Origin: a virus
Lineage: Duplodnaviria; Heunggongvirae; Uroviricota; Caudoviricetes
Direction: 5' to 3' (one strand)
IMG/VR virus record: IMGVR_UViG_2531839527_000012
Length of the DNA: 25,720 nucleotides
Below the pieces are notes generated by a model. It worked only from the letters and a program-made list of their open reading frames with translations. It was not told the DNA's origin and ran no database searches. Below are positions 1 to 8,833 of the stretch, piece after piece (the stretch's first letter is position 1; every line of letters starts with the position of its first letter). The position numbers and the translations under genes are program-made.

Positions 1-62
1 GGTATCCGTTCTGCTGAAGTGTCATGGCGTTGATTTTACGGTGACTCTTCGACAGTGAAAAG

Positions 63-83
63 AAAAAAGGCCGCAGAGCGGCC
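63..83 (-). terminator. Rho-independent terminator candidate for the leftward int operon
   Basis: Plus strand reads AAAAAA-GGCCGC-aga-GCGGCC at 63-83; on the minus strand this is a 6-bp GC stem with 3-nt loop followed by a T6 run, about 110 bp downstream of the last minus-strand gene (stop at 192). Confidence 0.6.
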
Positions 84-191
84 ATAAACACAAACAAAAA
101 TCAATAAGTTAGATAATTATCAAAGACTTACAGACACACAAAAACACAGCCAACCACAACAAATAACAGAGATGTGGTCACTTTGTGGATC

Positions 192-494
192 TTAAATCCA
201 GTGAAAACCTCTCGCCATTAAGCCAGCTAACCCCAAGGCTGTAGTAATCAACGCACCAAACATGAGCCTGAAATCTGTTGTGCGTATCTTATCAATATCG
301 CCTCTCACATCCTTGAGATCGCTCTTCAGCTCTTCAATATCTCTCTTGATGTATGAGATATCAGACTCCATTCGTGCAACACGGCTATCAAGAGCGAACT
401 CATCACGACTTGCCTGACTTCTGCGATTGCTCACCTGAATTCCTCCTGGATACGGAATGGAAAAACCCGTGATATAAGTATACTCATTCATCAC
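192..494 (-). CDS. Small membrane protein, coiled-coil plus C-terminal transmembrane helix (XhlA-like architecture, unverified)
   Basis: 100-aa ORF; charged heptad-like middle (DISYIKRDIEELKSDLKDVRGDIDKIR) and hydrophobic C-terminus (LMFGALITTALGLAGLMA). Overlaps the upstream ORF by 11 nt on the same strand, so probably co-transcribed with int. Confidence 0.5.
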   Translation of the reverse strand: MMNEYTYITGFSIPYPGGIQVSNRRSQASRDEFALDSRVARMESDISYIKRDIEELKSDLKDVRGDIDKIRTTDFRLMFGALITTALGLAGLMARGFHWI

Positions 495-867
495 CTGACC
501 CTTCCTGGTTTTTTTGCGATCCCAACCAGTTCAATACCGGAGTCACTGCATGCATAGTTATATAACCGCAGTTCTCACAAAAAGATTTGTAGTAATAATT
601 CGCATCACTATCACCTGGGTGACCTGGTTCAAGCCTGAAGTACGTCATAAACTCTTCCCCTTTTTCACCATCCAGGAGTTGTTGGAGATTTAACTTACCT
701 GTAGTGGCAGTTATCTGGGTATCTTTCAGCCCGCACCCAGGGCAAACCACAGTGACGTTTTTTTCATTTAAAAAACGGAAGAATTCTCTTGGCGTTATCG
801 ATTCCAGTTTTTTAATAAACTCCCGTTTTTTCTTTTCCATTTCCCCTGAATGTTCAATATCTTTCAT
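484..867 (-). CDS. Hypothetical zinc-ribbon protein (CPGC ... CENC)
   Basis: 127-aa ORF starting 10 nt downstream of the integrase stop on the same strand; two Cys pairs (CPGCG and CENCG) about 50 residues apart. No homolog recognised. Confidence 0.5.
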   Translation of the reverse strand: MKDIEHSGEMEKKKREFIKKLESITPREFFRFLNEKNVTVVCPGCGLKDTQITATTGKLNLQQLLDGEKGEEFMTYFRLEPGHPGDSDANYYYKSFCENCGYITMHAVTPVLNWLGSQKNQEGSGDE

Positions 868-877
868 TTTCCTACCT

Positions 878-1849
878 TCAAGCTATTGGATTAAATCTCA
901 CCGCATCCTGCAAGTAATCCGGCGCAAGATGGGCATAAATCATCGTTGTCTGAATCTTTGCGTGCCCCAGAATTTTCTGGAGCGTCAGAATATTGCCGCC
1001 GTTCATCATGAAATGACTGGCGAAGGTGTGGCGCAGCGCATGAACAGCCTGGCCGTCAGGAACATCAGATGCGACCGTTTTGATGACATCGCGAACCAAT
1101 GGATAATCCAGCGTCGGAAACACCAGTTTCCCGCCCCGTTTTTTGATCTTTTCAAACAGGCTTTCAGAAATAGGAACGGTACGGTTTTTGCTGTTCTTCG
1201 TTTTTGAAAAAGTGATTCGACAATGAAGAACACGGCGCTGCTCCAGTACCGCTACCTCGCCCCATCGCGCCCCGGTCGACAGAAGGATTTCGACAGCCAG
1301 CCGTTCATCGGGATTTTCAGCCAGTGCATCCAGCAACTGAACACATTCAGACTTACTCAGATATCCCATTTCGCGCTCGTTAACCTTCATTCCTTTAAGG
1401 CCTTGAACGGGGTTATCGTTAAGAAAATGGCCGGATGAGATGAGTGCGGTAAACATCGCGCTTAACGCCCCAATCTCTCGATTTATGGTGCTGGGCTGTA
1501 TCCCCTGCTCTATCCTGGACACACGTAGCTCGGTGAGCATCGTTGTATTAAGTTTATGCACGCACGGGTCATCCATTGCCTCACTCAAGCGCAGCAATTT
1601 AAGGCGCGTGTTATGCCCTGACTTCATTAGCTGGCCGTGGTATTTCCACCACAAGTCAATAAGCACTGACAGAGGACGGCGATCAATAGAGTTTCCTTTC
1701 CACTCATTGTTATGCTGTTGCGCCAGCCCCCACCGCTCATATAAAACTGCATCCGATTTCGTTTTAAATTTTTTGCGAATGCGTTTGCCTTTACGCCCCT
1801 CAGGGCGCATGTCAAGAAGATACCCTCCCGGAATTGATTTTATGCTCAT
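878..1849 (-). CDS. int: Tyrosine integrase, P2 Int-like
   Basis: ORF 878..1999 contains, from the internal Met (MSIKS...), a protein colinear with P2 integrase from memory: RKGKRIRKKFKTKSDA N-terminus, LSTGARWGE, HALRHTFASHFMMNGG, LQKILGH and IYAHL catalytic-domain motifs. Start placed at ATG 1849-1847; the 50 upstream codons are read-through. Confidence 0.9.
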   Translation of the reverse strand: MSIKSIPGGYLLDMRPEGRKGKRIRKKFKTKSDAVLYERWGLAQQHNNEWKGNSIDRRPLSVLIDLWWKYHGQLMKSGHNTRLKLLRLSEAMDDPCVHKLNTTMLTELRVSRIEQGIQPSTINREIGALSAMFTALISSGHFLNDNPVQGLKGMKVNEREMGYLSKSECVQLLDALAENPDERLAVEILLSTGARWGEVAVLEQRRVLHCRITFSKTKNSKNRTVPISESLFEKIKKRGGKLVFPTLDYPLVRDVIKTVASDVPDGQAVHALRHTFASHFMMNGGNILTLQKILGHAKIQTTMIYAHLAPDYLQDAVRFNPIA

Positions 1850-1898
1850 TCGTGAAACCCCAGCGTTACAAGACCACCATGCCCCCAGCGTTCCATGA

Positions 1899-2207
1899 TT
1901 AGCCGGGCTGTGTACCAGTCTTGCGGGGCTTTTGAGAAGACGATGTGTTTTCTGGCCCATCAGGGGAGAGAGAGGGACTGATCTGCCCAGCAGCCTCATT
2001 CGTTTTTCCTGTCATAAGCCAATTCATGTACTTAAAAAAGCGAGGGTGATTAACAATCTTGATAAGCACTTCGCCCCCTATGTTTTCAATCCGCCCCGTT
2101 TCATAACGACGCAAAGTGCCGATAGGCACATCAATCAGGCCGCAAAATTCTTCGCGCGTTAAATCCTCTGATTCACGAATCACTCTAATTTTTTCACCGA
2201 TAAGCAT
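1899..2207 (-). CDS. C: Immunity repressor, P2 C-like
   Basis: ORF 1899..2243; from Met13 (MLIGEKIRVIRESEDLTREEF...GTLRRYETGR) it is colinear with the ~99-aa P2 C repressor (ISEKIVLMRKSEYL...GTLSYYESGR, from memory). Same strand and upstream of int, as in P2. Start could alternatively be the ATG at 2243. Confidence 0.75.
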   Translation of the reverse strand: MLIGEKIRVIRESEDLTREEFCGLIDVPIGTLRRYETGRIENIGGEVLIKIVNHPRFFKYMNWLMTGKTNEAAGQISPSLSPDGPENTSSSQKPRKTGTQPG

Positions 2208-2219
2208 TGACAGTGTTCC

Positions 2220-2264
2220 TATAAGTACACTAAGCTTGCGCACAAGGTGTACTTATAAGTACAC
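2220..2264. promoter_or_regulatory. Lysis-lysogeny switch operator: three TAAGTACAC half-sites including a perfect 18-bp palindrome
   Basis: Between divergent C and cox: TAAGTACAC at 2222-2230 and the palindrome GTGTACTTA|TAAGTACAC at 2247-2264. A consensus TTGACA -35 hexamer sits at 2207-2212 on the plus strand. Promoter assignment is inferred, not demonstrated. Confidence 0.5.
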
Positions 2265-2303
2265 CAAGTCACAAACAACCACAGATAGCGCAGGTTATCA
2301 CAC

Positions 2304-2582
2304 ATGGCAAAAGTCCTGAACACACACGAACAGGCAGACTTTGAGCGTTTAGCAGCGTTCTATCCCTACCGCGATGAGCATGGGTTACCAGTACTTGAAG
2401 AAAGCCTGAAAGATTACGCAAAGCGTACCAACCAAGCTGTTAACACAGTGAAAAGACAGGCTGACAGAGGTTCAATTCCCATCAACCAAGATGAAAAGAA
2501 CTCAAGACGCACAGTAAATCTTTTCGCTCTTTTCCTGAAAACAATCAGGAGCGCAGAGAAATACGTGCAGATGACAAAATAA
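2304..2582 (+). CDS. Small basic early protein in the cox position (Cox/excisionase-like by position only)
   Basis: 92-aa ORF, first rightward gene opposite the repressor. No sequence similarity to P2 Cox recognised; assignment is by synteny. Confidence 0.45.
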   Translation: MAKVLNTHEQADFERLAAFYPYRDEHGLPVLEESLKDYAKRTNQAVNTVKRQADRGSIPINQDEKNSRRTVNLFALFLKTIRSAEKYVQMTK

Positions 2583-7504: not shown

Positions 7505-8454
7505 ATGAAAATTTGTATCGACGACGGCTCCACCAACATCAAGCTGGCATGGACTGAGAACGGCGAACGCCGCAACGCCATCAGCCCGAACAGCTTCAAG
7601 TCGGAATGGTCTGCGCCGTTCGGTGGCACGCAGCCCGCGAACTACATGCTTGATGGCGTGCGCTATGGTTTTGATCCGGTCAGCGATCGCTTTGTCCAGA
7701 CGACCGACACGCAATACCAGTACAGCGATGTGAATGTATTGCCATTCATCACGCGCTGGTCAAATCAGGCATCACACCACAGGAGGTGGATGTGGTTGTC
7801 ACCCTGCCACTGAGCGAATATTTCGACACAAACGCACAGCCGGACATGGCCAACATCAACCGCAAAAAAGCGAACGTTATGCGCCCGGTGGAGTACCAGA
7901 ACGGCGAAGCATTCACTATCCGTAACGTCGGGTTATGCCTGAATCCATTCCGGCTGGCTTTAAGGCACTGGCTGACATGAGTCCGTTTGAATCCCTGCTG
8001 ATTGTGGATTTAGGCGGAACCACGCTGGATGTGGCAAAGGTTCAGGGCAACTGGCAGGATCAGCCAGGTGTTTTGCGATCCACACGTAGGCGTTTCCTGA
8101 TGCCGATGCCGTACTGTCGGTGATGGCCACTAACGGTATGCGACCAGTCACCAATCGCCAATACCATTATCGAACATCGCCGATGAAGCCTGGCTGCGCC
8201 AGCACATCCACAATGACGCGCATTACGCCAGCCTGATGGCGGTTATTCGTGAAAAGGAAGAAACACTGAAACAACGCGTGATCCGCGCGCTGGCGGGTTT
8301 TTCGGGTTACGGACGGGTGATGGTTGTCGGTGGCGGGGCGGAGATTGTGGCACCCGCTATCCGCGAAGCCTGCGGAGTTAATGCGACTTTCATCGCGGAC
8401 GGGGTGCCACAGTTTGCTCTGGTTAATGGGCTGTACGCAATGGACAAGGAGTAA
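7505..8454 (+). pseudogene. parM: ParM/StbA-like actin-type partition ATPase, disrupted by multiple frameshifts
   Basis: Four track ORFs (7505-7813, 7786-7980, 7935-8123, 8236-8454) plus untracked frame segments are colinear with plasmid R1 ParM from memory: IDDGSTNIKL (phosphate 1), [12 protein letters not shown] (phosphate 2), VMVVGGGAE (adenosine motif), and a C-terminal LVNGLY. At least four frame changes; the two junctions reconstructed (near 7740 and 7930) are single-nucleotide deletions. Confidence 0.75.
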
Positions 8455-8458
8455 ACCA

Positions 8459-8770
8459 ATGACGACACCAACCAGACGGATAAGTTTCTATCTGAAGCCC
8501 GCCGCCGTCAAGAACGAAGGCGAAGCATGCGCCTGGCTGGACAGCCTTACACCAGAAGCCCGCAAAAGTGGTCAACGCGTGGCTTTTCTGGCCGGGCTGG
8601 CACTACTGAAAATGAATCCGGCAGAGGCTTACCGACTGGCTGCATGGGCTGATGATGAGGCGTTATCAGTGACACAAACCAGGACAGAACGCCCCGCATC
8701 ACAGCCAGTATCAACCGCACAGATAACCAGTCAGATGGCCGGAAATATCCGGGCGTTATTTCCTGAATAA
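8459..8770 (+). CDS. parR: ParR-like partition adaptor / ribbon-helix-helix DNA-binding protein
   Basis: ATG 8459 lies 4 nt after the parM stop. MTTPTRRISFYLKP...AWLDSLTPEARKSGQRVAFLAGLAL resembles the R1 ParR N-terminus (IAFKLNPD...LDSIP...RAALTAGLAL) from memory. Confidence 0.6.
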   Translation: MTTPTRRISFYLKPAAVKNEGEACAWLDSLTPEARKSGQRVAFLAGLALLKMNPAEAYRLAAWADDEALSVTQTRTERPASQPVSTAQITSQMAGNIRALFPE

Positions 8771-8833
8771 CACAACATCAGGGCGAGTTCGCCCTGCTCT
8801 CCACCTCAGAACATAAACAAGGAGAACGACTTA

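Follow-up and report, generated by a model that had tools for sequence, protein, structure and literature searches.

A variable gene pair encoding predicted zinc-ribbon and tail-anchored proteins between integrase and attachment site of a P2-like Escherichia coli prophage: a possible Rex-like exclusion module

Accessory cargo that occupies a prophage hotspot and is expressed together with the repressor is of a known kind. In the Vibrio P2-like phage K139, for instance, Glo/orf2, accessory genes for exclusion or abortive infection, lie between the repressor and int, and Rousset et al. are said to have described, in 2022, defence hotspots in P2-like prophages. The slot beside the prophage repressor is on record as a mosaic hotspot and is occupied by rexAB in lambda and by bstA in BTP1 (PMC8585504); the int-att interval of P2-like phages is reported to be a minor defence hotspot, with 3% of P2 defence systems (PMC13586616). 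A position next to a repressor or an integrase is nevertheless a weak pointer by itself, and the morons placed in this way include conversion genes and toxin-antitoxin modules.

The locus considered here lies in a window (the whole 25,720-nt stretch of DNA that was analysed) that represents the left end of a P2-like E. coli prophage and matches NZ_OY754421.1 exactly. Two genes, orfA and orfB, follow the integrase gene and are located, like int and the repressor gene C, on the minus strand. In positions of the whole window, the features are:

1-58, no strand: host DNA, the btuC upstream part of the ihfA-btuC intergenic space, common to E. coli genomes
59-83, minus strand: att core, AAAGAAAAAAGGCCGCAGAGCGGCC, which is the ihfA intrinsic terminator; 25 bp, identical at attL, attR and attB
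84-191, no strand: phage attachment arm (attL arm), with two direct repeats at its end
192-491, minus strand: orfB, 99 aa, predicted tail-anchored membrane protein; the ATG start is the one used by RefSeq and homologues
484-867, minus strand: orfA, 127 aa, predicted soluble acidic protein with a CxxC...CxxC zinc ribbon between N- and C-terminal helices
192-880, minus strand: exchangeable cassette of orfB, orfA, the 10-nt spacer and the int stop codon, defined by breakpoints against other alleles
878-1852, minus strand: int, P2-type tyrosine integrase (Pfam Int_N 2e-28, Phage_integrase 4e-20; RefSeq)
1899-2207, minus strand: C-type HTH immunity repressor (Pfam HTH_3 / HTH_31; RefSeq annotation), first gene of the lysogenic operon

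The int ORF ends at 878 with a TGA stop codon (878-880), its extent of 878-1852 being counted from a P2-Int-like start (MSIKS), and it is separated from orfA by a 10-nt Shine-Dalgarno-like spacer, AGGTAGGAAA (868-877). An earlier note on this DNA had described two same-strand genes after int, with a 10-nt gap and then an 11-nt overlap. The genes and the gap stand as described, but the 11-nt overlap arises only from an alternative GTG start of orfB (position 494), which would give an ORF of 192-494 and 100 aa, whereas the ATG start (491) gives an overlap of 8 nt, ATGAATGA, and this is probably the correct figure. Both orfA and orfB are real genes, chance ORFs being ruled out by family conservation and a high-confidence fold, and their arrangement is that of a translationally coupled pair, as far as sequence can tell.

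Downstream of the pair, a hairpin (GGCCGC-UCU-GCGGCC followed by U6CU4) is present on the minus strand at 59-83, with a free energy of -11.6 kcal/mol (z = -3.7 against shuffles). Window positions 1-2500 hold no other terminator-like site on the minus strand. No minus-strand promoter-like or terminator-like site was found between the C repressor gene and the cassette, nor was any minus-strand promoter-like site found upstream of orfA. In the C/cox switch region next to the repressor gene (2208-2303), TATAAGTACAC motifs recur and an inverted AAGTACAC...GTGTACTT is present; these repeats are probably C-repressor operators flanking divergent promoters.

Where does the host end and the prophage begin? 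Window positions 1-83 are matched by all 5426 complete E. coli genomes, most of which match nothing beyond, and empty sites match 1-83 only. In K-12 this stretch is the ihfA-btuC intergenic region, with btuC starting just left of window position 1, and the hairpin is a terminator located 17 nt past the ihfA stop codon. A 25-bp core is identical at attL (window 59-83), at attR (about 870-895 of L005, the sequence covering the other end of the prophage) and at K-12 attB (L002 1559-1583), and at the attR end it abuts ihfA. Because the 25 bp are repeated at attR beside ihfA, the att core can be assigned to 59-83 and equated with the ihfA terminator. The prophage is inserted between ihfA and btuC, and both orfA and orfB are inside it. 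Comparison with empty sites puts the host/prophage junction of attL at this core, beyond orfB; an att core or host boundary between int and the pair, which would have spoken against the earlier note's view of the two genes as cargo, was looked for and is absent. The same note had the pair end at a clean terminator (63-83). The hairpin is real, but it belongs to host ihfA and doubles as the att core, and a phage-specific moron terminator is rejected for that reason.

Integration at this site restores the hairpin and its T-run at both junctions; ihfA retains a terminator at attR, and the int-cargo operon acquires one at attL, just upstream of btuC. The phage arm behind the core ends in two direct repeats, ATGTGGTCA (172-180) and TTGTGGATC (183-191), the last of which is abutted by the orfB stop codon. 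They are putative arm-type sites for Int, and similar repeats (ATGTGGACA / ATGGTGGAAC) occur in the attR arm. Whatever the function of the cargo, the locus provides a case of a phage using the host ihfA terminator as att core, with the terminator kept at both junctions.

The attR end, outside the window, has cargo of its own. A Hok/Gef-family toxin gene is situated between ogr and attR (L005 1159-1299 and 1490-1750), and the other att-proximal slot of the prophage thus appears also to carry small membrane-protein cargo. Near the ogr/tail genes (L005 2003-8568, likewise outside the window) there is a complete His-Xaa-Ser radical-SAM system (hxsDBCA) together with an IS66-family element, an unusual cargo for a P2-like phage.

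The integrase and arm are found at the ihfA site in about 304-306 E. coli genomes, where the attL arm is 98-99% conserved regardless of the cargo behind it. The slot itself has at least five alleles: prophages carry there either one of at least four divergent forms of the pair or a single unrelated gene. Homology between the window and the two other aligned alleles ends exactly at 191 and restarts at 881-883, with flanks that are 98.4-99.6% identical between alleles, and the variable unit is therefore 192-880. The orfA and orfB of the window (allele 1) occur in 17 of the 5426 genomes. Allele 2, present in 86 genomes, encodes a 120-aa protein that is 24% identical to orfA (pairwise E = 9e-10) and a 145-aa coiled-coil/TM protein. 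Allele 3, from an O157:H7 strain, combines a 166-aa long-form orfA relative with a 145-aa DUF1640-like coiled-coil/TM protein, and the latter is shared by allele 4, in which it accompanies an unannotated 137-aa orfA relative. Allele 5, an unrelated single gene of 131 aa, fills the slot in 158 genomes. In strain AH19E004, a 137-aa orfA-family ORF that is unannotated in RefSeq (L114 1425-1838, minus strand) lies between int and the DUF1640-like gene and matches the orfA profile with E = 1e-28.

Two genomes have a cassette 96% identical to that of the window within a prophage whose identity over the whole region is only about 86%, which indicates transfer of the cassette. The earlier note's view of the two genes as cargo (morons) is strongly supported by the clean replacement of 192-880 in near-identical prophages at the same site, and by a GC content of 41-43% in the cassette, lower than that of int (about 50%). 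Within the prophage, orfA and orfB are dispensable, variable cargo. The carriers include many porcine ETEC and STEC strains, and no match was obtained in the plasmid collection searched. Independently of what the genes do, the exchange of cassettes is sharply delimited here, by the int stop codon on one side and the attP arm on the other.

Other parts of the window carry accessory genes as well. ParM-like and ParR-like plasmid segregation genes (about 7506-8781, plus strand) are located in the classical P2 hotspot between gene A and portal, beside an Ea22-like fragment and a frameshifted gene. A serine acetyltransferase gene (about 24832-25377, minus strand), which may be an O-antigen or receptor-modifying conversion gene, follows the tail-fibre assembly gene in a Z/fun-type tail hotspot. 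Within the tail-fibre gene (23399-23622), imperfect direct repeats with 65-nt units that are 80% identical are accompanied by 33-nt sub-repeats rich in GCACATAC, which would encode repeated Ala-His-Thr-His-like motifs.

The first protein of the pair, orfA, is acidic (pI 5.4) and has no hydrophobic segment, so it is predicted to be soluble. Among 1.84 billion proteins, its family numbers 15 close clusters and 86 remote representatives, and all relatives are stand-alone proteins of 95-180 aa. Residues C42, C45, C97, C100 and W114 are invariant in a 72-sequence family alignment. The AF2 model obtained from this alignment (pLDDT 90.1, pTM 0.77) shows a zinc-ribbon beta core preceded by two helices and followed by one long helix, with strands around both Cys knuckles as is general for zinc ribbons. 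Two conserved CxxC knuckles and the modelled fold together confirm the zinc-ribbon call of the earlier note, orfA being predicted to be a four-cysteine zinc-ribbon protein.

Family libraries say little about what this protein does. The only match of orfA is phrog_4293, a PHROG without assigned function, and scans of Pfam, NCBIfam, PHROGs and PADLOC with orfA, orfB and the 72 orfA relatives returned only function-less PHROGs and Cys-knuckle or coiled-coil noise. None of the zinc-ribbon Pfam families reaches its cutoff with orfA, and the best hit in PADLOC-DB v2, PDC-M14A (E = 0.014 over 17 residues), is not significant. A Foldseek search of the PDB, for which an earlier AF2 model (pLDDT 73.5) served as query, yielded nothing better than E = 0.2, and one of BFVD yielded a single unnamed 87-aa viral protein (E = 3e-3); there is no significant or informative neighbour of orfA among these solved and viral predicted structures. 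Two named candidates were also discarded: Lar-type restriction alleviation, with E = 0.02 over one Cys knuckle only, and the Ogr/Delta transcription factors, with no Ogr_Delta match.

The second protein, orfB, is built from a variable N-terminus, about six coiled-coil heptads, a TDFR juxtamembrane motif, a TM segment and an RGFHWI tail. The coiled coil with C-terminal anchor that the earlier note had read from the sequence is borne out by the heptad pattern, in which 11 of 12 a/d positions between residues 34 and 74 are hydrophobic, and by a hydrophobic segment at residues 76-92 (TM segment FGALITTALGLAGLM). With a coiled coil followed by a C-terminal TM and RGFHWI alone behind it, orfB is therefore predicted to be tail-anchored, with its coiled coil in the cytoplasm. 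The family has at least 1734 clusters, which share a Gly-rich linker, the coiled coil and the motif TDFRLLFGAIIAVALGLAGLMAKGFHW. The N-terminal peptide ahead of the linker varies with the type of partner, whereas the remainder is conserved. The juxtamembrane and TM stretch, TDFR-x2-FGA-x4-ALGLAGLMA-x-GF-x-W, is almost invariant, a degree of conservation that appears to exceed the need of a passive anchor.

The nearest named relatives of orfB stay below threshold. Against Pfam XhlA (PF10779) it scores 18.4 bits (E = 0.0024) and does not reach the gathering cutoff of 34.7, the Aeromonas orthologue scores 21.6 bits, and the resemblance of the coiled-coil/TM proteins to DUF1640 / CCDC90-like (PF07798) amounts to 26.5 vs a cutoff of 33.5. 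PADLOC-DB v2 gave no match to orfB, and tblastn of orfB against the sequenced phages gave three weak coiled-coil matches only. A search of the literature found nothing on the two proteins; no description of either family or of their pairing was found in the libraries and literature searched.

How far is the pair tied to this prophage? The module ranges over Enterobacterales, Aeromonas, Pandoraea, Pseudorhizobium and environmental viral contigs. Raoultella and metagenomic P2-like prophages have the order C-int-A-B-attL, 186-like elements have repressor-A-B-int, and in Aeromonas the repressor is separated from orfA by a 267-aa gene. The pair also occurs in tail-region accessory (moron) islands of unrelated siphophages, namely Salmonella SPN3UB (gp24/gp25) and a Klebsiella phage, and the SPN3UB-type phages have it without an adjacent repressor. 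An intact coiled-coil gene with a C-terminal TM comes next in 17 of the 19 orfA-family loci for which downstream DNA is available, and the partner appears frameshifted in the remaining two. In the IMG/VR loci L119 and L120 the coiled-coil/TM partner looks frameshifted or truncated compared with L121 and L122, damage that could reflect decay of the module or sequencing error.

Seen from orfB, the usual neighbour is the repressor. In Pseudorhizobium, Pandoraea and metagenomes, orfB is located just after a CI/S24 repressor, and in 45 of 67 non-redundant IMG/VR loci it is preceded, at no more than 1.5 kb and on the same strand, by a CI/HTH-S24-like ORF. When the ORF nearest upstream was scanned with Pfam, Peptidase_S24 was identified in 21 of 64 cases, HTH_3 in 15 and Phage_CI_repr in 8. 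The ORF directly upstream is hypervariable, with 27 partner clusters in 61 loci: the orfA-family zinc ribbon is the commonest type (21 of 61), a mini zinc-ribbon accounts for 3, and the others belong to more than 20 unrelated clusters. The mini zinc-ribbon partner (C-x-YGHG ... CxxCGY-x-ELFD, 74-87 aa) is located immediately behind CI repressors and ahead of orfB-family genes (L033 5745-6008, where it is not called as a gene; L034 5775-6014; L102 3720-3944). A profile scan of the genome contigs with one family alignment detected no relatives, and of the locus scans with single-protein queries, P0058 detected none and P0115 one locus only.

Judged by this distribution, the pair is peculiar neither to the phage of the window nor to the integrase, and belongs to a widespread module linked to the repressor (lysogeny) operon. 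A role as integrase accessory or excisionase (RDF) is rejected because the module also occurs without int, next to cI or in an island of the tail region that has no int in its vicinity.

What would lysogens gain from such a pair? The reading that we favour, and which may well be right although we hold it tentatively, is that the cassette is a lysogen-expressed, two-component phage-exclusion or abortive-infection module resembling Rex. C, int, orfA and orfB would be co-transcribed as a lysogenic operon, of which the cassette would be the tail, and the transcript would end at the att-core hairpin (59-83). Lacking a promoter-like site of its own and placed in the lysogenic operon, the cassette is presumed to be made in lysogens. 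The variable cytoplasmic orfA would dock on the variable N-terminal peptide of orfB and act as a sensor or regulator, with the conserved coiled coil and TM of orfB as the membrane effector. Upon infection by another phage, orfB would then perturb the inner membrane or trigger premature lysis. A constant membrane part, interchangeable partners and divergent alleles in a single species would suit a conflict system whose sensor varies while its effector stays the same; this pattern, and a position shared with rexAB, bstA and a reported defence hotspot, lead us to favour a Rex-like exclusion or abortive-infection module; co-transcription, A-B interaction and anti-phage activity are all things that we infer. 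More tentatively still, the orfB family with its hypervariable partner might represent a widespread class of anti-phage systems, so far overlooked and tied to repressor operons, among the temperate phages of Proteobacteria; a tail-anchored effector would in that case be combined with interchangeable cytoplasmic sensors. We consider this generalisation possible rather than probable.

Phages can also be kept out without killing the host. In non-lethal superinfection exclusion, for which P22 SieA, T4 Imm and HK97 gp15 are the entry-block models, orfB with orfA would block entry of phage DNA at the inner membrane and the host would survive. The presumed expression of the pair in lysogens and the predicted inner-membrane location of orfB agree with such a role, the allelic diversity is compatible with an arms race, and the extremely conserved TM with its GF-x-W tail could be where a conserved membrane component of host or phage is contacted. 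However, orfB is almost all cytoplasmic, with about 5 residues beyond the TM, and its hypervariable cytoplasmic partner better suits the sensing of intracellular cues; the classical injection blockers are single membrane proteins and are not known to need a cytoplasmic partner. We therefore regard an entry block as unlikely.

Just as unlikely, in our view, is an addiction module that stabilises the prophage, with orfB as a membrane-damaging toxin and orfA as its upstream, translationally coupled neutraliser. The format is suggestive, a small overlapping pair in which a soluble acidic protein is encoded ahead of a membrane protein, and a Hok/Gef gene is present at the other end of the same prophage. 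Yet the pair has no promoter-like site of its own and lies within the repressor/int operon in every P2/186-type case, and the 158 genomes that have the unrelated single gene instead give no sign of addiction. Moreover, a single conserved orfB core faces at least 27 unrelated partner clusters, which would be unusual for antitoxins.

A part in the phage's own life cycle, either in the regulation of lysogeny and induction or as XhlA-like help to holin-mediated lysis, strikes us as quite improbable. The tight linkage of the orfB family to CI-type repressors would suit the former and the weak XhlA-like signature the latter, XhlA of PBSX being a membrane protein and the partner of the holin XhlB in lysis (PMC5589764). 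Against this, near-identical prophages lack the cassette or carry unrelated cargo, an ordinary P2 lysis cassette (holin, M15 peptidase, DUF2570) is present at another place in the prophage, XhlA is matched below its cutoff, and the surroundings are those of the lysogenic and not of the late operon. To a similarly low degree we credit host-directed lysogenic conversion unrelated to other phages (envelope or stress physiology, virulence fitness), which low-GC moron cargo presumably expressed in lysogens and the many porcine ETEC/STEC carriers would suit, but which is at odds, as a niche-specific trait, with a host range from Enterobacterales to Pseudorhizobium and environmental contigs, and with a diversifying cassette-swapping that resembles conflict systems.

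Should the favoured reading of phage exclusion hold, the pair would be a compact and abundant two-gene addition to the known repertoire of prophage defence. It would introduce a new type of effector, a tail-anchored coiled-coil protein, together with a naturally modular sensor slot, and would help to show what purpose the highly expressed slot beside prophage repressors and integrases serves in many phages. Alleles in clinical E. coli (ETEC, STEC, O157:H7 and O104:H4-type) could then affect phage susceptibility and the outcome of phage therapy.

Among the systems described so far, the P2 defence hotspots share with the cassette its location in the int-att interval and clean swapping between near-identical phages; unlike their contents, orfA and orfB match no catalogued defence system, and neither of the two main P2 hotspots (A-Q; tail Z/fun locus) coincides with the cassette, both being elsewhere in the window. 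XhlA (PF10779, Bacillus PBSX) and DUF1640 are likewise phage-borne proteins of about 90-145 aa with an N-terminal coiled coil and a C-terminal TM. Unlike XhlA, orfB belongs to the lysogenic operon of a Gram-negative phage, after int, and not to a holin-endolysin cassette, the holin, M15 peptidase and DUF2570 genes of the prophage being at about 17.2-18.0 kb of the window. The arrangement of Glo/orf2 in K139 resembles the Aeromonas and 186-like versions of the pair, although the proteins are unrelated. BstA of the Salmonella prophage BTP1 is also an accessory exclusion or abortive-infection gene directly after the prophage repressor (PMC8585504), but it is an unrelated, single DNA-binding protein with its own aba immunity element. 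RexA/RexB of lambda differ in having no sequence relationship to the pair, which has no PADLOC match; RexB has four TM helices, whereas orfB has a single C-terminal TM and a coiled coil, and RexA has about 279 aa, compared with the 127-aa zinc ribbon of orfA. What they have in common is a two-gene module in the repressor operon, in a mosaic slot next to the repressor, with one protein predicted to be cytoplasmic and the other to lie in the inner membrane. Placement in the repressor operon, on the same strand and with no promoter-like site of its own, is found here in the orders C-int-A-B, cI-A-B-int and cI-X-B, and the analogy with Rex is best understood as one of logic only.
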